This document shows, piece after piece, positions 5,736-47,640 of a stretch of DNA of 64,000 nucleotides. Origin of the DNA: Methylacidiphilum caldifontis (GTDB lineage: Bacteria > Verrucomicrobiota > Verrucomicrobiia > Methylacidiphilales > CAMAQI01). Position numbers and translations under genes: made by a program. Location of the stretch: contig CAMCSM010000003.1 of assembly GCA_945877805.1 (NCBI GenBank), positions 1,295 through 65,294 of the forward strand. Direction: 5' to 3'. Numbering within the stretch: the first letter of the stretch is position 1; every line of letters starts with the position of its first letter. The notes under the pieces are model-generated. The model was not told the origin of the DNA. It did no database searches and saw only the letters and a list, made by a program, of their open reading frames with translations.

Positions 5736-6449
5736 TTATTCTCCTAGGTAGGCTCTCCTTACCTCATCACTTTCGAGAAGATTTCTTCCTGTATCAGAAT
5801 GAACAATCTTCCCCGTGACCATCACATATCCCCGATGGGCGATCTTTAATGCCTGACGTGCATTTTGCTCGACCAATAAAATCGGAACCCCCGTTTGATT
5901 GATTTTTAAAAGGATCTCAAAAATCTTTTCGACGATCAATGGAGCTAACCCTAAAGAGGGCTCATCGAGCATTAACAACTTTGGCTCACTCATTAACGAA
6001 CGTCCAATGGCAAGCATCTGCTGCTCCCCGCCACTCAACGTTCCTCCGAGTTGCCTCTTCCGCTCCGCTAATTTCGGAAAGTAATCAAAAACCTGTTCCA
6101 ACTTCTCTCCGTTTCGTCGTGAGTCGAGGAGATAGGCACCAATTCTTAAATTCTCTTCAACGGTCATCAACGGAAAGATATGCCGAGCCTCGGGACATAA
6201 GACGATCCCTTGAGCCAAGAGTCGATCAGGACTCTCCCCCACCAAAATCCCCCCTTGCCAATAAATCGATCCCTTCTGATGGCGAATCACCGACATAATT
6301 GAGGCGAGTGTTGTTGTTTTACCCGCTCCGTTTCCTCCCAAAAGCGTGACAATTTCACCCGCATGGACCACCAAGTTGACCCCTTTTAAAACCTCCGCCG
6401 CCCCATAGCCGACATGAAGATCTTTTAACTCAAGCAAAGGAGAGTTCAT
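5736..6449 (-). CDS. livF: Branched-chain amino acid ABC transporter ATP-binding protein
   Basis: GGNGAGKTT Walker A, LSGGEQQML signature, LivF-like length and C-terminus. Confidence 0.85.
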   Translation of the reverse strand: MNSPLLELKDLHVGYGAAEVLKGVNLVVHAGEIVTLLGGNGAGKTTTLASIMSVIRHQKGSIYWQGGILVGESPDRLLAQGIVLCPEARHIFPLMTVEENLRIGAYLLDSRRNGEKLEQVFDYFPKLAERKRQLGGTLSGGEQQMLAIGRSLMSEPKLLMLDEPSLGLAPLIVEKIFEILLKINQTGVPILLVEQNARQALKIAHRGYVMVTGKIVHSDTGRNLLESDEVRRAYLGE

Positions 6450-9557: not shown

Positions 9558-10400
9558 TTAACGACTACTATGAAAGATATAATCCATCAGCTCTCTCAGA
9601 TGATCCACGTATCGGCTCATCCATAGATCCCCGCCCATCATCCAAACAATCGCGGCAATCGCAATAAAGGGGCCGTAAGGCATTCGCAATCCCATCGCTC
9701 TTCTTTTTTGAATAATGATCGAAATCCCAATAATCGATCCAAAGACAGAGGATAAACCGAGAACGAAACCGGCTCCCCAAGGGCCGAAAAAAGCCCCAAT
9801 CGCAGCCAGTAACTTCACATCCCCTAATCCCATCGCCTCGCGCCTAAAGACCCAAGTTCCAATTTTTGCGATCAAAAATAAAATAGCCCCTCCAACAAAG
9901 GCCCCTCTCATACTCTCGATAAAACCGTTCCAGCTATTGGATTCGCCGTGAAGTTGTGGGTAAATAAAACTGATCACAAGACCGGCAACACACCCCCCTA
10001 AAGTAAAACGATCAGGAATGATAAAGTAGTCTAAATCGATACAACTGGCGATAATCAACCCAGAGGTGATGAAAGCGTAAATGCAAAAGATCGGAGTCGC
10101 TCCCTGTTGTTGCCAAATCCACCAAAATAAAAAGGCGGTCGTTGCCTCCACCATCCAATAACGAGCATCAATCCGAGTTCCACAACAATGGGCCCGGCCT
10201 TTTAAAAAAAACCAGCCTAAGATCGGAATATTAAACCTCCATGGAATCGCTGAGCCGCAAGAGCCACAATAGGAGGACTTTGAAACAAGATCGACCTCTA
10301 TAGGAATGCGGTAAATACAAACATTTAAAAAGGAGCCGATACAGGCGCCAAATAGAGCAATAAATACCTGAAACAATGGCAGATGAAAATCCATAATCAA
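9558..10400 (-). CDS. pilD: Prepilin peptidase / N-methyltransferase (A24 family)
   Basis: N-terminal Cys cluster CGSCGSAI...CCGTRI. Conserved GLGDVKL aspartyl motif. 7-8 TM helices. Confidence 0.85.
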   Translation of the reverse strand: MIMDFHLPLFQVFIALFGACIGSFLNVCIYRIPIEVDLVSKSSYCGSCGSAIPWRFNIPILGWFFLKGRAHCCGTRIDARYWMVEATTAFLFWWIWQQQGATPIFCIYAFITSGLIIASCIDLDYFIIPDRFTLGGCVAGLVISFIYPQLHGESNSWNGFIESMRGAFVGGAILFLIAKIGTWVFRREAMGLGDVKLLAAIGAFFGPWGAGFVLGLSSVFGSIIGISIIIQKRRAMGLRMPYGPFIAIAAIVWMMGGDLWMSRYVDHLRELMDYIFHSSR

Positions 10401-10404
10401 CTAG

Positions 10405-10592
10405 GAGCAACTGTCCCTATCTAATGGGGAATGGCATAGGGGTAAGCGGATTTTTAAAACATTCAATAGGGAACTCAGGAAAAAAGGAAAAAATAATCCT
10501 GATTTCCTGCTTTCCCCATTAAAATTGTATTTTTCGTAACTATTTGATTGCAAAGTGTTTATATGTTTTAGAAAGTTTACTTCACTAAGAGA
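10405..10592. repeat. Repeat family A, copy A1 (~188 nt, hairpin-forming)
   Basis: Aligns over its full length with 42197-42384 and 45706-45897. Internal inverted repeat ggggtaagcgga...tcctgctttcccc. Confidence 0.85.
10524..10553 (-). promoter_or_regulatory. Sigma70-like promoter candidate carried inside repeat A1
   Basis: Minus strand reads TTGCAA, 18 nt, TACAAT. It points toward the pilD start at 10400. Confidence 0.3.
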
Positions 10593-10603
10593 CCTGCAAT
10601 CCC

Positions 10604-10936
10604 TCAGGCAGATCCAATCGCCAGCCAGGCGACCTCAACCGACCACATTCGAGTATTCAGCCATGTTCTCATTTGGAGTGAAAAACCCTCAGCGGTAATA
10701 TGAGCTGCATTTAAGCTCAACCGTGCATTCCGAGAGTTATCGATATCAAAACCGATGAGGGAAAGTTGGACGATCGGCTTGTCGGAAAATTTCTGATCAA
10801 ACCGAATATAACGCTCGAAAATCCGATCATGATTTTCTGAGGGAACATCGACTAATACCCAATCAGGCTCCTCGACACTTCCTACAATGGTTCCATTTAA
10901 AAATAAAGGCACTTTGCTCTTATCAGACATACTCAC
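10604..10936 (-). CDS. H-type lectin domain protein, no signal peptide
   Basis: FDQKFSDKPIVQLSLIGFDID...ITAEGFSLQMRTWLNTRMWSVEVAWLAIG resembles the H-type lectin fold signature. Confidence 0.5.
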   Translation of the reverse strand: MSMSDKSKVPLFLNGTIVGSVEEPDWVLVDVPSENHDRIFERYIRFDQKFSDKPIVQLSLIGFDIDNSRNARLSLNAAHITAEGFSLQMRTWLNTRMWSVEVAWLAIGSA

Positions 10937-10986
10937 ATCCCCTTTTTATTTAAGTTACCTCAATCAAAAAAATGGTCAAGAAACAA

Positions 10987-11020
10987 CAAAAAAACCCCGA
11001 ATAATTTCGGGGTTTTTTTT
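10987..11020. terminator. Bidirectional intrinsic terminator
   Basis: aaaaaaaa-ccccgaa-taat-ttcgggg-tttttttt. A-run and T-run flank a 7-bp GC-rich stem. Confidence 0.8.
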
Positions 11021-11034
11021 GAGTAAAATTCTTC

Positions 11035-11388
11035 CTAAACAGTCTTTGGAGTTTGACCCGATCCGTCAGACATCGGCATCTGAATACTTCCATTTAAGAT
11101 ACCGCCTTGAGAAACGATGAATCGTGGAGATTTAATATTTCCGTTCACGACCCCCGTCGGTGCAACATCGACTTTATCGCTTGATTCGATCGAACCAGAA
11201 ACTTTTCCTGAAACTTGCACATTCTTTGCAGAAACTTCAGCTTTGACCTCTCCTCCTTGAGAGACAGTCAAATTCTCTTTAATCTTGATCGTTCCTTCGA
11301 CATAACCATCAACAACGATATTCTCGTCGCCAATAACGTCCCCTTTGATTTTAATGGTCTTCCCGATGTAGGTAGGTGTAAGTGACAT
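11035..11388 (-). CDS. Bactofilin (polymer-forming cytoskeletal protein)
   Basis: Repetitive beta-helix pattern IKGDVIGDENIVVDGYVEGTIKIKENLTV...VSGKVSGSI...VNGNI. Confidence 0.8.
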   Translation of the reverse strand: MSLTPTYIGKTIKIKGDVIGDENIVVDGYVEGTIKIKENLTVSQGGEVKAEVSAKNVQVSGKVSGSIESSDKVDVAPTGVVNGNIKSPRFIVSQGGILNGSIQMPMSDGSGQTPKTV

Positions 11389-11471
11389 AGTGTTCTATTT
11401 TTAGCCTCTGTTATGACAATCGTCAACGGCAAAAGCAATTTATCCCTCAATCTTGAAATTCCTCGTAGAAT

Positions 11472-11583
11472 AAAATTGTATTTTTAAAATTTATAAATCG
11501 GAATCCAATGCGATTGATATCGGGGAGAGACTATTTTCATTGAGGAGATATCCTCGGTTTCGGTCTTTGACCGATTTATGTTT
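11472..11583 (-). repeat. Repeat family B, copy B1 (~110 nt, MITE-like)
   Basis: The reverse complement aligns with 27491-27600 and 35476-35575. Terminal inverted repeat cataaatcgg...ccgatttat. Confidence 0.85.
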
Positions 11584-13141
11584 ATTCAAAACTTTTATCT
11601 TTTTTTACTCCGAGCTGGACTGAGCGTTTATAGTGGTACTGACATTTCTCTCCCTCTCCCTCACCAAGCGCTTTTAATGTTTTTGCTAAGGCACGATGCA
11701 GATCTCCAGAATTGGGGTTTTTCGTGAGCCCCTCCTCAAGTGATTTCTTTGATTCCACGTGCCACCCACGATCATATAAAATAATCCCCAAACCGAGATA
11801 GCTCTCTGCAATTTCCGGAGATAAAGCAATGGAAACGATCGCATCATCAATCGCTTCTTCACTCCTTCCCCCTTGACTCTTCACAATAGCGAGGGTCCCG
11901 TAACTGTACCCATCATAGGGAGCGAGCTCGATTGCTTTCTCCAAATGATTAATTGAGTCTTCAAAATTGCCACAAAGATACTCAACACTTCCTAAATTTG
12001 AGAGCAGATAAAGGGAGCTTGAATCTTTCTCATAGAGCGCTTTGTAAATCGAGCGTGCCTCTTGATAGCGGGCAGAATTAAAGGCACTTGAGGCCTTTTT
12101 ACAGGAAATGAGTTCGGCTTTAGGGATCATCGGAATGAGAGAGGGGGAGGGATTGGAATGAGATTGTATCAAATCAATGACCGATTTCCTCAGTTGCTCC
12201 ACACGATGATAAATTAATCGATTCTCATTTTCTAACGATTCTTTGGCAAATTGAAACTCCCCTTCTGACTTATACCTTTGATCGCTCTCTAAAGGTCTCC
12301 AAATCTTCTCCCCCATTACTTTTTCAAATGCATCCGCAGGGACTCCTTGAGGATTCCGTGCAATTTTAACCGCTCTTTCAAGCCCCTCTTGGAGCCGACT
12401 CAAGACACGATATTGAATCTGTTCAAAATCAAACCCTTGAATCCATGAGCTCTCAAAAGGAGCTCTCGGCTTTTCCTCAGCCACCACTTCTTGAACCTCC
12501 ACGGGGGAGGGGGAATTCTCTCCAGATTTATCCACCTTGAGTTCTGGCCCTTTAGCGCTCTCTGAAGGGGTAATCGACAAATCAGGCGGAATCGTTATCG
12601 GCGTTTGAACCTCCCTCTCTTTCCGCTCTCCAAGGAGGTTAACCGTTTCATTTCGCTCTTTTTTAGGACTCACAAAAAGCTCCTTAAAACCCGAAAACTC
12701 CAGAAGAACAATCTCCCCATGAGGAAGCGCCCGGCCATTAACAATAGTCTCCCCTAAATGTCCTGTAATCCCAAAAGTCTTTTTTTGATAGGAATCAAAA
12801 ATAATCGTAAATAAGGAACCTGCGGGCATCTGGATAAAATAACGATCGATAATAAAGTTCAACTCTCTTTTCTGCGCATCATCATTACGAATAAAAATTG
12901 CATGGTCGCCGTGGATATTAAAACCGAAACTTAACAAAAAGGAATAATCAGAGTGATCGACTCGAAGTTTATAAGTCGATCGAGGAACCGTATTTCGAAC
13001 CTCCTGTTCTGGGGAGAAAAAAACAAGATTCCGTTCTCTCAGCAAAATTGTGAAGGCCTCCACAGGACGAGCTAACTCTTCGGATATCACTCCCGTTAAA
13101 AGAAAACTAAGGACAACTAAAATAGAAAGCAAACATTTCAC
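11582..13141 (-). CDS. Secreted TPR-repeat protein
   Basis: N-terminal signal peptide. C-terminal ~170 aa form TPR-like repeats (YKALYEKDSS..., LEKAIELAPYDGYSYGTLAIV...). Confidence 0.6.
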   Translation of the reverse strand: MKCLLSILVVLSFLLTGVISEELARPVEAFTILLRERNLVFFSPEQEVRNTVPRSTYKLRVDHSDYSFLLSFGFNIHGDHAIFIRNDDAQKRELNFIIDRYFIQMPAGSLFTIIFDSYQKKTFGITGHLGETIVNGRALPHGEIVLLEFSGFKELFVSPKKERNETVNLLGERKEREVQTPITIPPDLSITPSESAKGPELKVDKSGENSPSPVEVQEVVAEEKPRAPFESSWIQGFDFEQIQYRVLSRLQEGLERAVKIARNPQGVPADAFEKVMGEKIWRPLESDQRYKSEGEFQFAKESLENENRLIYHRVEQLRKSVIDLIQSHSNPSPSLIPMIPKAELISCKKASSAFNSARYQEARSIYKALYEKDSSSLYLLSNLGSVEYLCGNFEDSINHLEKAIELAPYDGYSYGTLAIVKSQGGRSEEAIDDAIVSIALSPEIAESYLGLGIILYDRGWHVESKKSLEEGLTKNPNSGDLHRALAKTLKALGEGEGEKCQYHYKRSVQLGVKKDKSFE

Positions 13142-43421: not shown

Positions 43422-43910
43422 CTATTCCGAAGGGAGATCCGTCCCGGTTTTTCCCCATTTTTCGAGGCAATAATCCAAAGAGATCTTCCCTGGTCCAAAA
43501 AAGAGGATAACAAGGGTCACAATCAGATAGGTCGAGGGAGTCGCACTTAAAAACTCCGAAGGATCAGAAAAAAATTGCAGGAGTTTTTCATGGTCGGCGG
43601 TGTAATAAGCAACCATCATGGTAAAAGCGAGAGGGAGACTAACCACTCTTGAAAATAACCCTAAAATTAAAAACAATCCGCCGAAGCATTCAACAGAGGC
43701 CGCAACCAAGGCATTCATCTGGGGAAAGGGGATATTTAAACCGGTAAAAAATTCCGTGACTTGATCAAGATTTTTTAATTTCCCATATCCAGTGACCATA
43801 AAGAGCCAGCCCCAATAGAGCCTCAGTCCCAATAAAAAGGGGGTCTGAAATAAATTCATGAGTTTATTACACAAAGAGACAGCGGAGAGATAATTCATCT
43901 TGATATTCAT
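43422..43910 (-). CDS. DoxX family membrane protein, last gene of the MNIO cluster
   Basis: LLGLRLYWGWLFMVTGYGKL...ECFGGLFLILGLFSR. Start moved to 43910 to remove the overlap. Confidence 0.75.
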   Translation of the reverse strand: MNIKMNYLSAVSLCNKLMNLFQTPFLLGLRLYWGWLFMVTGYGKLKNLDQVTEFFTGLNIPFPQMNALVAASVECFGGLFLILGLFSRVVSLPLAFTMMVAYYTADHEKLLQFFSDPSEFLSATPSTYLIVTLVILFFGPGKISLDYCLEKWGKTGTDLPSE

Positions 43911-43935: not shown

Positions 43936-44814
43936 TCATTTTTTTGATTTTCGTAGAGAGATCCACCCCATCGCCGACCACTCTTGAAACTGGGTTTGCA
44001 CGGAGGCGGCACTCACCGCATCCTTAAATTTATTTTGCTTCATTACTTTTTCAATCGCTGCACCAAGGGAAATTCCTTGATCAAATGCGGTGAGAAGTTC
44101 AAAAGCCCATGGCTCGATTCGTTTAAAATAGACTTTAAATTGATAGCGATGAACGGCTAAATAGATCCTCTCTTTTTTAATCGCTCCGACGAGAGCACGG
44201 CATTTCGACTTTAAACGACGATCTAAAACACCGTTACTCAACTGCTCACGTACCCCCCCTTGATTCAGCTTCAACTGCCATTCATCCAACGGATAATCGA
44301 GTGCCATCAGTCGAACATGGGGAGAGATTCTCAATCGACAAAGGAGGGGGCGAGCCCCCAAATGTTTTGCCGTCAGGGGAGATTCCTCTTTTTCATCATA
44401 AACATGAAGTTGAGCGAGCTCCATCGTCGCCATCTGATAGAAAAGAGCGCTTTTATCCTTGTAGGCTCTCTTTTCTTTGAGAATAAAAGGGGGCAAACGG
44501 GTTCCAAAATCACGTAGGGTATAAGATCGTGAGGGAAATTTCTCGATGTAACGACGAATCAGTCGTTCAAATTCCTGATCCCCCATGAGGGCTCTTAATC
44601 CAGGGAAATCATCATACAATGACTCTAAAATCCGAAACCAATACTGTCGGGCATAAATTTCAATTCGATCGACTGCCGTAAGACGTGAATTCGGTTTGAT
44701 TTCCGATTTTATCCATCGACCGCCGATTCGACTCGGTTGAAGCCGATCTTTTGAGTTTAAAGGGGCTTGAAGGCAGCTTAAGAAATCCTTTTGAAGTTGC
44801 GCAAGAGAGCTCAT
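43936..44814 (-). CDS. DUF2063 family protein (BufC/HvfC-like MNIO partner)
   Basis: IEIYARQYWFRILESLYDDFPGLRALMGDQEFERLIRRYIEKFPS. 4-nt overlap with the DUF692 gene. Confidence 0.75.
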   Translation of the reverse strand: MSSLAQLQKDFLSCLQAPLNSKDRLQPSRIGGRWIKSEIKPNSRLTAVDRIEIYARQYWFRILESLYDDFPGLRALMGDQEFERLIRRYIEKFPSRSYTLRDFGTRLPPFILKEKRAYKDKSALFYQMATMELAQLHVYDEKEESPLTAKHLGARPLLCRLRISPHVRLMALDYPLDEWQLKLNQGGVREQLSNGVLDRRLKSKCRALVGAIKKERIYLAVHRYQFKVYFKRIEPWAFELLTAFDQGISLGAAIEKVMKQNKFKDAVSAASVQTQFQEWSAMGWISLRKSKK

Positions 44815-45680
44815 TTTTTAGCCCTCTTTTTTTTCTGAGCCGCTTTGTCTTTATCTTTCCAATAGCGAGTCGCTTTCTTTGCTTCATCATGAACCTCTTG
44901 AAAAGAGGGGATACTGGCATCCCACTCCAAAAGGGTTGCGGTAGGCCCCACCTTTTGAATCGCTAAGTCATAAAGTTCCCAGACCGGATCAATCACGGGG
45001 TGGTCATGGGTATCAATAATAAATCGTTCATATTTCGAATGACCTGCGATATGCATTTGAGCCACGCGATGATGGGGAACCCCTAAAATATAATCTCGGG
45101 GATCAAAGGTATGATTCTGGGAGGAAACATAAATATTATTTACGTCGAGAAGGATCCCACAGTCGGCCCGTTCGACGACCTCTGTCAAAAACTCCCATTC
45201 CGTCATCTCTGAGGAATGAAATTCGGCGTAGCTACTCACATTCTCGACGGCAATGGGGATCTCTAAATAATCACGAACTTCACGAATTTTCTTCGCCGCA
45301 TTTTTCGCCGCATCTAATGTGTACGGAAGCGGGAGTAAATCATGAGAATAGGTTCCATCGACACTTCCCCAACATAAATGATCGGAGAGCCATGGAGTCT
45401 TCGTGCGTTTGACTAAATCTTTCAGTTTTTTTAGATGAGTTCGATTGAGTCGTTCTTTGGAGCCAAAATAAAGGGAGACCCCATGTTGAACGACTTGATA
45501 TTGCTCTAAAATTTGATCGAGGATATGCAGTGCCCGTCCCCCCTCCTGCATATAATTTTCTGAAATAATCTCGAACCAATCAACGGTCGGTTTTTCCGTC
45601 AAAATATGATCGTAATGAGGGACTCTCAATCCGATTCCAATCCCATAATTCGTGAAATTATTAAAGCGATTTGCAGGCAT
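44811..45680 (-). CDS. DUF692 / MbnB-family multinuclear non-heme iron oxidative enzyme (MNIO)
   Basis: GIGLRVPHY...VDWFEIISENYM...HGVSLYFGS...PWLSDHLCW...VENVSSY...LLDVNNIYVS...MHIAGH...IDTHDHPV...LEWD. Confidence 0.9.
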   Translation of the reverse strand: MPANRFNNFTNYGIGIGLRVPHYDHILTEKPTVDWFEIISENYMQEGGRALHILDQILEQYQVVQHGVSLYFGSKERLNRTHLKKLKDLVKRTKTPWLSDHLCWGSVDGTYSHDLLPLPYTLDAAKNAAKKIREVRDYLEIPIAVENVSSYAEFHSSEMTEWEFLTEVVERADCGILLDVNNIYVSSQNHTFDPRDYILGVPHHRVAQMHIAGHSKYERFIIDTHDHPVIDPVWELYDLAIQKVGPTATLLEWDASIPSFQEVHDEAKKATRYWKDKDKAAQKKKRAKK

Positions 45681-45705: not shown

Positions 45706-45897
45706 TCTCTTAGGAATGCTGGAAGGCAGGAATTTAAAAACATTTTAAATAGGGAAATCAGGAAAAAAGGAATTAAAACAAAAAATTCGGCGGTCTTTTT
45801 CCTATTTTCCTGCTTTCCCCATTAAAACTGTATTTTTCATAACGACCTTATTACAAGATATTCATATATCTTTCGGAAGTTTGCTTCACTAAGAGAG
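45706..45897. repeat. Repeat family A, copy A3, lying between the precursor and MNIO genes
   Basis: tctcttaggaatgctggaaggcaggaattt...ttttcctgctttccccattaaaactgtatttttcat...cttcactaagagag. Confidence 0.85.
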
Positions 45898-45968
45898 CAC
45901 TGAGTTTTTCTTAAGGGAACTTTCCGATTATAAGTCGGAAAGCTCCCTTTTGATCTTAAACTAAATAA

Positions 45969-46244
45969 TTATTTCTTTTCCTTCTTTGCGGGACATCCAT
46001 CTTTACCGCTACAAGAGGCCTTTTCTTTGCTCTCTTTATCTTTTTTACCCTTGCAGCCATCTTTACCACTGCATTTATCTTTTTCCTTCTTTGCAGGGCA
46101 GCCATCCTTACCAGAACAAGTGGCCTTTTCTTCAGCTAAAACAGCGCTCGCAAGAACACCTGCGTTTGCGGCTTGGAGTGAGGTTCCTGTCAAAATTCCA
46201 GCAACTGCGGCTGCTGCGATCATCGTGCGTGTAACTTTAGTCAT
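45969..46244 (-). CDS. Secreted Cys-repeat peptide, candidate RiPP precursor (bufferin/HvfA-like position)
   Basis: Sec signal MTKVTRTMIAAAAVAGILTGTSLQAANA. Core has 3x CSGKDGC separated by Lys-rich linkers. aagga RBS 8 nt upstream of the ATG. Confidence 0.7.
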   Translation of the reverse strand: MTKVTRTMIAAAAVAGILTGTSLQAANAGVLASAVLAEEKATCSGKDGCPAKKEKDKCSGKDGCKGKKDKESKEKASCSGKDGCPAKKEKK

Positions 46245-46326
46245 TGTTTTATCCTTTTTTTTTATTTTTTTGTTTTGAAGCGATCGGAAATTCCGAACAG
46301 CTATTATTAAGAGTCCCAGAAAAAAA

Positions 46327-46342
46327 GTTTATTCCCAGAAAT
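46327..46342 (-). promoter_or_regulatory. Candidate ECF-type promoter element upstream of the precursor gene
   Basis: Minus strand reads ATTTCTGGGAATAAAC, then 13 nt, then CTCTTA. The same GGGAATAAAC 10-mer recurs upstream of the sigma gene. Confidence 0.4.
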
Positions 46343-47094
46343 TAAAATAATTTTTTAAGCTCATCGAGCGTCACTCCTCCCGTCAAGATATACCCGTGAC
46401 TTTCATCAGTCCAACTGGCCACCGCATTCCCTTGTCTCTCGTGAAAATCAGGAACTCCAAAGGAGGGAAGATTTTGCAGATCGGCTTTATCGATGACAAA
46501 AAGATGAACCTCTTTTTTAACTCCTTCGATCTGAAAACAGATCATCGAGGAGCGAATTCCAAAAAATTCGACCTGACGACAGCCAAATTGAGAGAGTCCC
46601 TCCACATGAAAGGGGATCTGGAATGAATGGGGAGTCCCACGGCTCTTGAGCCACTCCCGCGCTTCACTTAATTGGGGGGTTTTCTTCGAAAGCATGAAAA
46701 CGCTCTGAGTGAAATCAACGGCTCTCCCCTCGAATTGAGCAAAGTCATTCGATTTCGAGTTCTCCCAGAAGGAGAAGGTCGTCAAACTCAAAATCAGCAG
46801 CGCAGCGGCCGCTAACGGAATCCATAAATAGCGAGGGAATGAAATGATCTTCGCCGATTTCTGCTGCTGCTCTTGATTTTGAGCTAAAATCTTCCGTTTA
46901 AGATCCTCAGGAATCGAAATTGAATGGATCGATTTTTTAATTTTTGAATCCCACTGATATTGCTGCTCCCAAACCCTTTTCAAGGAGGGATCACGCTCCA
47001 TCTCCGCAAAGGCGGCCTCAATCTGTGGATCCCCCTCCCCCTCTTGAGGCGAGCGAACAGACAAGAGGATCTCTAAGATTTGCTCTCTTTTCAT
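46342..47094 (-). CDS. Single-pass anti-sigma factor
   Basis: ATGA overlap with the ECF sigma gene. Cytoplasmic N-terminus, TM helix LWIPLAAAALLILSLTTFSFW, periplasmic C-terminal domain. Confidence 0.6.
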   Translation of the reverse strand: MKREQILEILLSVRSPQEGEGDPQIEAAFAEMERDPSLKRVWEQQYQWDSKIKKSIHSISIPEDLKRKILAQNQEQQQKSAKIISFPRYLWIPLAAAALLILSLTTFSFWENSKSNDFAQFEGRAVDFTQSVFMLSKKTPQLSEAREWLKSRGTPHSFQIPFHVEGLSQFGCRQVEFFGIRSSMICFQIEGVKKEVHLFVIDKADLQNLPSFGVPDFHERQGNAVASWTDESHGYILTGGVTLDELKKLF

Positions 47095-47606
47095 GCTCTT
47101 ACCTCCGCAAAATATTTTTCTAATCGTTTCCTCATGATTCCCTTCCCTCGTGCGAGACGGGACATCACGGTTCCGATCGGAATCTCTAAAATATCGGCGA
47201 TTTCTTTATAAGATAGATCCTCCAAATAAAAGAGGGTCAACGGCTCACGATAAACAAGATCGAGCCCCTTTAAAACCTCGACCACCTTCTCTCCATCCAT
47301 CTCTAAAGGGACCGGTGGGGCCTCATCGGCTAACTCAATCGTCATCTCCTCGAAACTTTCGCTGGGATGATTTTTCTCCCGTCGTCTCGACCGGAGAAAC
47401 TCCCGATAGAGAGTCGTAAAGAGCCAAGTCTTGACCTTGGAGGGATCGCGCAATTGATCCCCTTTGCTCGCCCAGATAAAAAAGGTTTGCTGAGTCAAAT
47501 CGGAGGCATCCGCCTCGCTGCCGGAGAGGCTGATACCAAAACGAAAAAGGGATGAATAATAGGTCTCGACCACGACTTCAAACTCCATTGGGTGATTGTT
47601 ATTCAT
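47091..47606 (-). CDS. ECF (group IV) sigma-70 factor
   Basis: Region 2 DASDLTQQTFFIWA...WLFTTLYREFL. Region 4 LSYKEIADILEIPIGTVMSRLARGK. Confidence 0.85.
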   Translation of the reverse strand: MNNNHPMEFEVVVETYYSSLFRFGISLSGSEADASDLTQQTFFIWASKGDQLRDPSKVKTWLFTTLYREFLRSRRREKNHPSESFEEMTIELADEAPPVPLEMDGEKVVEVLKGLDLVYREPLTLFYLEDLSYKEIADILEIPIGTVMSRLARGKGIMRKRLEKYFAEVRA

Positions 47607-47625
47607 GTGAGACAGAAGGACTTTG

Positions 47626-47640
47626 GTTTATTCCCGAAAT
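47626..47640 (-). promoter_or_regulatory. Candidate autoregulatory ECF promoter element
   Basis: Minus strand reads ATTTCGGGAATAAAC, then 14 nt, then CTCAC, directly before the annotated ATG at 47606. Confidence 0.35.

Follow-up and report, generated by a model that had tools for sequence, protein, structure and literature searches.

Bufferins, or captophorins, are currently regarded as the most numerous of the peptides made by MNIO enzymes and as a widespread bacterial copper defence, and the experiments reported so far concern three precursor types, nearly all of them from Pseudomonadota. Here we describe a locus in a 64,000-nucleotide stretch of Methylacidiphilum caldifontis DNA (contig CAMCSM010000003.1; the whole stretch is referred to as the window, and positions are counted from its first letter). 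An open reading frame (ORF) on the minus strand of the window, at 45969..46244, had been picked out in an earlier note as a secreted precursor with a Cys-bearing repeat core. We consider it quite probable that this ORF encodes a bufferin/captophorin-type "BufA" precursor, that is, a ribosomal peptide metallophore, of a sequence class that has not been described. The locus would thereby add a fourth and easily recognized architecture, from a poorly studied phylum.

The bufferin maturases BufB and BufC make 5-thiooxazoles, and in bufferin 1 (Buf1) two thiooxazoles bind a single Cu in a 2N2S site (PMC11626156). The outermost Cys of both Buf1 and Buf2 stay as a disulfide, and Buf2 is described as small and folded, with this disulfide at its termini; the Sec signal of bufferins is cleaved and is dispensable for modification, and expression of buf1 and buf2 is driven by SigF (PMC11626156). 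5-Thiooxazoles are the product of all characterised MNIO-PME1 clusters (PMC13097082). A precursor built from cassettes is known in MmrA, which has three Lys-flanked di-Cys cassettes; 4 H are lost from every one of its six Cys, and a single cassette is able to bind Cu(I) (PMC12538549). Fontiphorin carries seven thiooxazoles and binds up to four Cu (PMC11626156; PMC13097082; PMC12538549). Hundreds of further small ORFs with a signal peptide and 1-18 Cys that precede MNIO genes were left unclassified by Antoine et al. in 2025 (PMC12452194), and the family described here probably belongs among them.

The genes of the window locus lie, all on the minus strand, in the order extracytoplasmic function (ECF) sigma factor, putative anti-sigma factor, precursor, MNIO, DUF2063 protein, and DoxX protein. 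In every feature that can be tested from the sequence, this operon is of the ordinary bufferin/captophorin (MNIO-PME1) kind. The operon kind is thus known, and what is new is the repeat pattern of the precursor, which was previously undescribed. The locus leaves the working picture of bufferin systems unchanged and would be no surprise to specialists.

A precursor peptide with three di-cysteine cassettes

The ORF at 45969..46244 (-) starts with ATG and encodes 91 amino acids followed by a stop codon. Its translation, MTKVTRTMIAAAAVAGILTGTSLQAANAGVLASAVLAEEKATCSGKDGCPAKKEKDKCSGKDGCKGKKDKESKEKASCSGKDGCPAKKEKK, reproduced letter for letter the one given in the earlier note. An RBS-like (Shine-Dalgarno-like, or ribosome-binding-site-like) AAGGA box lies at 46252..46256 (-), 8-12 nt 5' of the ATG, and is kept in four related loci (L007, L008, L009, and L010). 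Residues 1-28, encoded at 46161-46244 (-), form a predicted Sec-type signal with K3 and R6 in the n-region and an h-region, MIAAAAVAGIL, having a mean Kyte-Doolittle value of 2.1-2.3. The AxA-type signal peptidase site that had been reported for the peptide follows as A-N-A and then G. Signal peptides, here and in the family at large, were called by rule and hydropathy. The lipoprotein reading of the precursor was rejected, as no lipobox stands before any Cys.

A conserved spacer or leader-like segment, GVLASAVLAEEKAT, occupies residues 29-42 and is followed by a Lys-rich core at residues 43-91 that carries three di-Cys cassettes. Cassette 1 is CSGKDGC at residues 43-49 (Cys43 and Cys49; 46098..46118, -) and is followed by PAKKEKDK; cassette 2 is CSGKDGC at residues 58-64 (Cys58 and Cys64; 46053..46073, -) and is followed by KGKKDKESKEKAS; and cassette 3 is CSGKDGC at residues 78-84 (Cys78 and Cys84; 45993..46013, -) and is followed by PAKKEKK and the stop codon. 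All six Cys of the peptide are therefore contained in three identical heptads, as had been stated, and no further CSGKDGC motif is present in any frame of the 64-kb window. The composition given earlier for the core needs a narrower frame. A Lys content of about 35% was found in the 50-residue Cys-bearing part (34%) but not in the whole predicted mature peptide (28.6%, 18/63), and the stated lack of large hydrophobic residues is true from the first Cys on but not of the preceding GVLASAVLAEEK, the 12 residues just past the predicted cleavage site, which contain two Val and two Leu.

The linkers between the Cys pairs are Lys-rich and 8-13 residues long, and the net charge of the precursor is about +7. 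Ser or Pro follows five of the six Cys, the middle cassette having C-K-G-K. In cassettes 1 and 3 the second Cys is directly followed by Pro, and conservation of this Pro reaches about 90% in the last cassette. AlphaFold2 modeling of the precursor with an alignment of 13 sequences gave no secondary structure and a mean predicted local distance difference test (pLDDT) score of 45.5, and a flexible peptide substrate would be expected to lack a predicted fold in this way.

The repeat is of old origin, and it is the protein sequence that has been maintained. The three 21-nt DNAs encoding the heptads show four to six pairwise differences, every one of them synonymous, and the Ser codons (TCT versus AGT/AGC) are more than one base change apart. 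The three repeat units of about 52 nt in the precursor DNA are 63-85% identical, and Tandem Repeats Finder called no array at the repeats. Because the units have diverged, no array was called, and the heptads differ only synonymously, recent slippage was rejected as the origin of the repeat, bearing out the earlier argument that selection has acted on the peptide. The ratio of nonsynonymous to synonymous substitution rates (dN/dS) of the precursor gene was 0.155 against the L007 orthologue and 0.18 against that of L009; with more distant orthologues the synonymous sites are saturated, and the peptide is still recognizable. The two ORFs on the opposite strand, 45986..46234 and 46027..46278, were rejected as the functional frame, since all antisense frames of loci L010 and L011 contain stops while the sense frame is kept; one antisense frame is open in close relatives only. 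As Lys codons give no stop on the opposite strand, and the antisense frames of L010 and L011 are interrupted, these ORFs are by-products of the Lys codons. The precursor ORF is a real gene under purifying selection.

Relatives of the precursor lie upstream of MNIO genes

A search of 5.8 billion proteins returned 12 homologues of the precursor, none of them functionally named, with two to four copies of C[SGN][GS]K[DE]GC[PKS][GAS]K. Cassette number is 2, 3, or 4 among the near relatives. The exact window peptide was found in public data without a name, and its relatives are labeled "hypothetical protein" or "low-complexity protein," as which current curated models leave the GKDGC cassette peptides. 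When a profile was searched against 1.84 billion representatives, 354 clusters (formed at 50% identity) were obtained at E <= 1e-3, and 32 at E <= 1e-10. The GKDGC cassette peptides making up these 354 clusters are found in several phyla and are centered on Verrucomicrobiota and Planctomycetota.

When 185,579 species genomes were scanned for the pattern of the family alignment, 50 related loci (designated by L-numbers) were obtained. In 41 of the 50, the peptide gene is followed, in the same orientation and after a gap of 50-450 nt, by an MNIO gene, and the encoded MNIOs are 45-100% identical to that of the window. The earlier note had proposed looking for repeat peptides linked to MNIO genes elsewhere, and these 41 loci are such a linkage, so that the condition it had set for refuting its reading did not come true. 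DUF2063 is next in 37 of the 41 MNIO loci, DoxX is present in 21, and the ECF pair in 10; in L013, DoxX lies between the peptide gene and the MNIO gene. Independent metagenome contigs with precomputed Pfam annotation have the same gene order as the window. Nine loci lack an MNIO gene; one of them is cut off by a contig edge, and the other eight are orphan genes with enough flanking sequence. No alternative maturase was found near the MNIO-less relatives L038 and L046, both of which were inspected. Orphan precursors are also known for proven bufferins (PMC12452194). The hosts are mainly Verrucomicrobiota, including Opitutaceae, Akkermansiaceae, Luteolibacter, and Chthoniobacterales, with others in Planctomycetota, Xenobia/Vulcanimicrobiota, and scattered groups. 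Culturable carriers include Silvanigrella paludirubra (WP_153419324.1), Opitutaceae bacterium EW11, and a Luteolibacter.

Composition, spacing, and signal features of the family were determined with 201 distinct peptides, of which 195 have a signal-like N-terminus. Past the first Cys, the peptides are 25% Lys, 18% Gly, 12% Cys, and 10% Asp, with hydrophobic or aromatic residues making up about 2% in total. Adjacent Cys are spaced by six residues (C-x5-C) in 676 of about 1090 pairs and by five (C-x4-C) in 12. The Cys context of the family is G-K-[DN]-[GS]-C-x-G-K-D, with Lys at -3 in 81% and at +3 in 74%, and in the window peptide all six Cys conform to C-x-(G/A)-K. The evolutionary unit is the hexad G-K-D-G-C-x, with its C-x5 period, and not the heptad; given the spacing and context in the family, the heptad CSGKDGC represents two hexad Cys in succession.

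Three layouts intergrade in the family: isolated Cys pairs on Lys-rich linkers, as in the window; continuous GKDGCx arrays; and the fusions of Opitutaceae, in which CSGKDGC is joined directly to the BufA2-like block CKGHNDCKGKGGCKSGDNGCKGKNSCKGKGGC. The array and fusion layouts score 14-42 bits on NF050166 (Cu_RiPP_BufA2; cutoff 60), with E values of 1e-5 to 1e-11 for several. Ten loci (L012, L016, L018, L019, L021, L022, L027, L029, L035, and L043, with the genes near 6000-6340) encode peptides that start with CSGKDGC and continue into a BufA2-like block of six or seven Cys. These fusion peptides are from Opitutaceae and Chthoniobacterales, and since they reach 42 bits against the BufA2 cutoff of 60, the annotation pipeline probably gives them no name either.

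The MNIO is of the BufB type and has an unusual specificity site

The MNIO (DUF692) gene, at 44811..45680 (-), begins 288 nt downstream of the precursor gene on the same strand and encodes 289 amino acids. No other small Cys-bearing ORF lies between the promoter and the MNIO gene. The protein scored 350.3 bits (cutoff 310) on NF050167 MNIO_BufB, the NCBI curated model for "MNIO family bufferin maturase," and 361 bits on PF05114. It fell below the cutoffs of the HvfB model (264.7 bits, cutoff 360) and the MbnB model (36 bits, cutoff 325), and was also sub-cutoff on the ApyH and ChrH models. The metal-site motif residues H66, H101, E146, D179, N182, H210, H214, D223, H225, and E252 are intact in the window MNIO, and none of the ten varies among the complete MNIO sequences from the related loci; we take the conserved motifs to be iron-ligand sites, as in the MbnB and TglH structures.

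The DUF2063 gene, at 43936..44814 (-), encodes a 292-residue partner (PME type 1; BufC/HvfC-like), a protein type with an RRE-like domain at the C-terminus; the start of this gene and the MNIO stop share 4 nt. The protein matched PF09836 with 61.6 bits (cutoff 27.2), NGO1945_C weakly (17.6 bits, below 27), and the NCBIfam HvfC model with 49.7 bits (cutoff 142). Sequence search found no match for it in the PDB. Its AlphaFold2 model has a mean pLDDT of 89, and the best PDB matches of the model in Foldseek were TglI (8hi7_A, E 1.8e-5) and NGO1945 (3dee, E 2.3e-4, template modeling score 0.70 on the target). By its predicted structure the DUF2063 protein is an MNIO partner akin to TglI and NGO1945.

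When aligned with 3BWW, the window MNIO has Arg19-Val20 at the Arg-Arg site of EGKCG-type MNIOs (R15/R16 of FonB) and Asp254-Ala255 at their Asp-Phe site (D249/F250 of FonB). Ala255, encoded at about 44916-44918 (-), is equivalent to Phe250 of FonB and Asp251 of BufB2. In "Cys-Lys" MNIOs, the Asp at this second specificity site touches the Lys of the substrate (PMC13097082). Across the MNIOs of L001-L055, the position that follows the catalytic Asp holds Ala, Asp, Gly, Glu, or Thr, and its identity covaries with the residue after Cys in the adjacent peptide: the median fraction of Cys followed by Lys is 0.67 with Asp MNIOs and 0.17 with Ala MNIOs (n = 13 and 15; Mann-Whitney p = 0.0017, uncorrected for phylogeny). 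In addition, the Planctomycetota loci L015 and L026 encode pure GKDGCP-hexad peptides beside an MNIO that shares the EWDA motif, and hence the Ala. From this covariation and these GKDGCP arrays, the window MNIO looks like a BufB2-type specificity variant able to act on Cys followed by Ser or Pro. FonB, an MNIO of the EGKCG class, tolerates Pro at no position and rejects charged residues after Cys (PMC13097082). Whether Ala255 or instead Asp or Phe is present may decide the range of Cys contexts that an enzyme accepts, among them Cys-Pro, which is rejected by the sole enzyme tested.

Comparison with characterized precursor classes

The window system shares with BufA2 of the Caulobacter vibrioides buf2ABC operon the Sec-type signal, the order of precursor, MNIO, and DUF2063 genes, a BufB-class MNIO, and a Gly/Lys/Cys-rich core in which Cys recurs with a period of six residues and has Gly-Lys after it. 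The buf1/buf2 genes are known to be under ECF sigma control, and the Opitutaceae intermediates, in which CSGKDGC is fused to a BufA2-like block, link the two. BufA2, however, has a block of 6 (or 12) Cys, whereas the window peptide has separate C-x5-C pairs, variable in number in the family, on Lys/Glu/Asp linkers. Lys follows Cys in BufA2 and Ser or Pro follows five of six Cys here; the MNIO has Asp at the substrate-Lys site there and Ala here; and DoxX and a non-NrsF anti-sigma factor are part of the window operon. The hexad, in which Lys flanks each Cys at -3 and +3, marks the precursor as a distant, cassette-style relative of BufA2.

MmrA (bulbicupramide) of Microbulbifer likewise has three two-Cys cassettes flanked by runs of Lys, their number varying among strains, and an MNIO and DUF2063 pair is common to both systems; the loss of 4 H from each Cys and the binding of Cu(I) by a cassette are features of MmrA itself. 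The EGKCG-repeat peptides at large (oxazolin HvfA, fontiphorin FonA, gonophorin, and MmrA) are predicted to be disordered or repetitive, as is the window peptide. They have E-G-K-C-G, with Lys before Cys and C-x4-C spacing, whereas the window peptide has C-S-G-K-D-G-C and contains no K-C-G. Their MNIOs, of the HvfB/FonB type, have Arg-Arg and Asp-Phe in place of the Arg-Val and Asp-Ala of the window enzyme, and these peptide families are found mostly in Pseudomonadota, in contrast to the mainly Verrucomicrobiota and Planctomycetota distribution of the window family.

The BufA1 (DUF2282) systems of gig operons share with the window the core of precursor, MNIO, DUF2063, and DoxX with an adjacent ECF/anti-sigma pair, and Sec export. 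Two thiooxazoles form one Cu site in BufA1, and the same is proposed here for the window cassettes. BufA1, though, has a folded four-Cys domain with a disulfide, while the window peptide has no DUF2282 match; and its anti-sigma factor is the multi-pass NrsF, as opposed to the single-pass protein with weak DUF3379 resemblance encoded in the window. The "CxxxxC" family (PMC12452194) is similar to the window family in comprising small signal-peptide-bearing peptides just before MNIOs of the large bufferin cluster. It is set apart by its described features, having C-x4-C where the window family has C-x5-C, and a Lactamase_B_2 gene is present in 54% of its clusters (PMC12452194); no such gene was seen in the window or in three Pfam-annotated related loci. 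Methanobactin (MbnA/MbnB/MbnC) has in common the oxidation of Cys of a ribosomal peptide, by an MNIO and its partner, to a Cu-binding N,S heterocycle system. It differs in having no Sec signal, an oxazolone-thioamide, a cleaved leader with dedicated export, and a function in copper acquisition, not buffering.

By their models or motifs, the precursor lies outside the BufA1, BufA2, and EGKCG/oxazolin classes, and it had no Pfam family match at E <= 0.1. Its architecture is closest to that of the three-cassette MmrA, and its local sequence and enzyme closest to BufA2/BufB2. A text search of the literature for CSGKDGC, SGKDGC, and GKDGC found no paper, and the motif is absent from PMC12452194 and its available supplements and from the available supplements of PMC13097082.

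Sigma factor, promoters, and hairpins

The ECF sigma-70 family factor (171 amino acids; 47091..47606, -) has Sigma70_r2 and Sigma70_r4_2 domains and scored 64 bits on TIGR02937 (cutoff 42.9). The gene that follows (46342..47094, -), whose start overlaps the ECF stop by 4 nt, encodes a putative single-pass anti-sigma factor of 250 amino acids with weak matches, all sub-cutoff, to DUF3379 and anti-sigma families. This putative assignment was made from its position, the 4-nt overlap, and its co-conservation with the ECF gene in L001, L002, L007-L009, L011, and the Opitutaceae loci.

Two copies of an ECF-type promoter motif are found in the window. That of the precursor gene, GGAATAAA-N15-TCTTA, is at 46308..46335 (-), and that of the sigma/anti-sigma genes, GGAATAAA-N14-TCTCA, is at 47608..47634 (-). 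The general pattern GGAATAAA-N13-16-TCTYA occurs only at these two positions in 64 kb, against 0.05 expected. The GGAATAAA-N14/15-TCTYA motif resembles sigma-E-type ECF promoters. The motif is kept 5' of the precursor gene in L004 and L007-L011, and 5' of the ECF gene in L007, L008, L009, and L011. The sharing of the motif fits an autoregulated ECF factor that may also drive the precursor operon. The -10 element (TCTCAC) of the ECF promoter abuts the ATG of the sigma gene (47606), as it does in L007, L008, and L009, and the sigma/anti-sigma mRNA is therefore probably leaderless. A scan for sigma-70 promoters gave a number of sites no higher than in shuffled sequences.

A stem-loop with a 15-bp stem lies at 45913..45949 (-), 20 nt past the precursor stop (-26.2 kcal/mol, z -5.2). 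Most related loci likewise have a strong hairpin just past the precursor stop (z <= -3 in 27/49), and many of these hairpins have a U-tract. A hairpin after the precursor gene is the usual means by which precursor transcript is kept in excess of enzyme transcript, and the stem-loop at 45913..45949 is probably a transcript attenuator or stabilizer that sets the precursor-to-enzyme ratio. A second long hairpin of about 100 nt, at 45735..45835 (-), lies inside the 288-nt gap between the precursor and MNIO genes. This gap is unusually long, and as a whole it folds with z -5.4. An Rfam element in the gap was rejected, as only sub-threshold matches to miRNA-precursor hairpins were obtained, which we took to be due to chance.

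The last gene encodes a DoxX membrane protein (BufD/HvfX-like) that scored 81.6 bits on the HvfX family model NF050144 (cutoff 80) and 76.7 bits on DoxX; a gene of this kind is frequent in bufferin clusters but is not obligatory. The mechanically called ORF starts from GTG 44012 and overlaps the DUF2063 gene by 77 nt (43936-44012), with the domain beginning only at residue 60. An in-frame ATG at 43910 (MNIKMNYL...) gives a protein of 162 amino acids, encoded at 43422..43910 (-). Because of the domain position and the 166-residue length of the L002 homologue, ATG 43910 is probably the start.

Proposed pathway and alternative explanations

We infer the thiooxazole chemistry, the modified Cys, Sec cleavage, the copper ligand, and the stoichiometry from characterized relatives, and by analogy with them the window system could operate as follows. 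Envelope or metal stress would cause the membrane anti-sigma factor to release its ECF sigma partner, and the freed sigma would transcribe its own operon and, via the second promoter copy, the precursor operon, with the hairpin 3' of the precursor gene letting precursor mRNA outnumber enzyme mRNA. A cytoplasmic MNIO-DUF2063 heterodimer would bind the unfolded precursor and, with O2, carry out the four-electron oxidation of each Cys to a 5-thiooxazole. All six Cys are probable targets because the C-x-(G/A)-K context is common to all, with Lys at -3 or +3. Sec would export the peptide, which would be cut after Ala28 (between ANA and G). In the periplasm, the peptide would then act as a copper buffer, each CSGKDGC cassette presenting two thiooxazole N,S ligand pairs to one copper ion, and the Lys/Glu/Asp linkers would keep the chain soluble and disordered. 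Three cassettes would hold about 3 Cu per window peptide, because two thiooxazoles make one Cu site in Buf1 and one MmrA cassette binds Cu(I). Gain or loss of a cassette would alter the copper capacity. The variable cassette number of the family (2-4) fits this idea of a tunable capacity, which the earlier note had raised with each heptad as one possible modification and metal-binding unit, and the natural 2-, 3-, and 4-cassette series lets the relation of capacity to unit number be tested.

Several observations weigh against the assignment as a bufferin-type precursor. The window peptide matched none of the curated BufA1/DUF2282, BufA2, and HvfA models at E <= 0.1. Within a cassette, the second Cys may escape modification, because Pro follows two of the three second Cys and FonB rejects Pro, and full modification of all six is not assured because Buf1 and Buf2 keep their outermost Cys as a disulfide. 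Protection against copper by MmrA, itself of the cassette type, is weak or unproven (PMC12538549). The stem-loop past the precursor stop has no U-tract on the sense strand, and the window anti-sigma factor is not NrsF, the type found with Buf1.

The failure to match the BufA2 model would have a simple cause if the precursor were merely a divergent member of that class (BUF_6/12Cys, "Cys-Lys"), its novelty being sequence drift only. The relatives do grade continuously into BufA2-like peptides, as in the Opitutaceae fusions of CSGKDGC with CKGHNDCKGKGGCKSGDNGCKGKNSCKGKGGC, and several match NF050166 at the E values given above; the hexad period and the C-x-G-K context are common to both, the middle window cassette even having C-K-G-K, and the window MNIO passes the BufB model. 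We nonetheless regard drift alone as unlikely, since the relatives score well under the BufA2 cutoff and the window peptide gives no match at E 0.1, has neither the six-Cys block nor a predicted fold, unlike the folded Buf2 with its terminal disulfide (PMC11626156), and differs from BufA2 in its isolated Cys pairs, in its Lys-rich linkers of 8-13 residues, and in its variable copy number, while its MNIO has Ala and not Asp at the substrate-Lys site of Cys-Lys MNIOs. The Cys-Pro sequence at the end of cassettes 1 and 3 leads to a different explanation, in which the peptide is a precursor with other chemistry or ligands: one Cys per cassette might be converted, leaving a thiooxazole and a free thiolate, or the cassette might form a disulfide, or the metal might not be copper. 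The near-constant Pro of the last cassette, the rejection by FonB of Pro and charged residues adjoining Cys, the two Cys kept unmodified in Buf1 and Buf2, the location of some bufferin fusions in mercury clusters, and the unusual Ala255 site of the window MNIO would all be in keeping with this. On the other hand, the pure GKDGCP arrays beside EWDA MNIOs in the Planctomycetota loci L015 and L026 suggest that Cys-Pro is a genuine substrate context of this enzyme clade, and the products of all characterized MNIO-PME1 clusters are Cu-binding 5-thiooxazoles, so that we think such other chemistry rather improbable.

The peptide could also be an unmodified, secreted, Lys/Cys-rich low-complexity product, acting as a thiol metal binder or an envelope polycation and merely co-regulated with an MNIO that acts elsewhere. 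Its net charge of about +7 and the eight precursor-like genes with enough flank but no nearby MNIO, with no maturase near L038 or L046, could be so explained, but orphan precursors are reported for proven bufferins as well. Moreover, the order peptide-MNIO-DUF2063 is strict across several phyla, with peptide and MNIO adjoining in 41/50 loci; there is no second Cys-bearing small ORF between promoter and MNIO gene that might be the substrate; and the MNIO specificity residue covaries with the residue after Cys (0.17 versus 0.67, p = 0.0017, uncorrected for phylogeny). An unmodified peptide is, in our judgment, scarcely credible. A modified, bufferin-type precursor allows a broader proposal, which we offer tentatively as one possible view of the whole family: that the GKDGC C-x5-C peptides are a separate, unnamed class of thiooxazole metallophores with their own MNIO variant (Ala/Gly for Asp/Phe), in which each cassette would form a discrete bis-thiooxazole Cu site on a disordered polycation, capacity would change by cassette gain or loss, and some members would be exported by the twin-arginine (Tat) route.

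Other features of the related loci

A twin-arginine start, MNRREFTKMMAAAVAGMVAG..., was observed in GKDGC-hexad relatives encoded at L031 836-1168, L039 5767-6186, and L045 5839-6189, which directly precede MNIO and DUF2063 genes, and also in L034, L038, L046, L047, L053, and L056. These relatives scored 15.7 on the NCBIfam TAT_signal_seq model (cutoff 16.7). The paper surveying the landscape of these peptides describes Sec signals only, with Tat absent from its main text. Export by Tat of an already modified and possibly metal-loaded peptide would, if true, be a different route.

Peptides of the Akkermansiaceae/Luteolibacter type have a conserved C-terminal tail, ...(E/S)G(E/T)IL or SSIL, that the window peptide does not have. 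This tail was seen in P0008, P0011, P0012, L013, L030, L032, L036, L040, L048, L050-L052, and L054, and from its sequence it may be a sorting or processing signal. On the metagenome contig of L004, a reverse transcriptase gene (RVT_1) beside a bAvd gene, a pair resembling a diversity-generating retroelement, lies at 10207-11668, about 2 kb downstream of the MNIO operon, to which it is probably unrelated.

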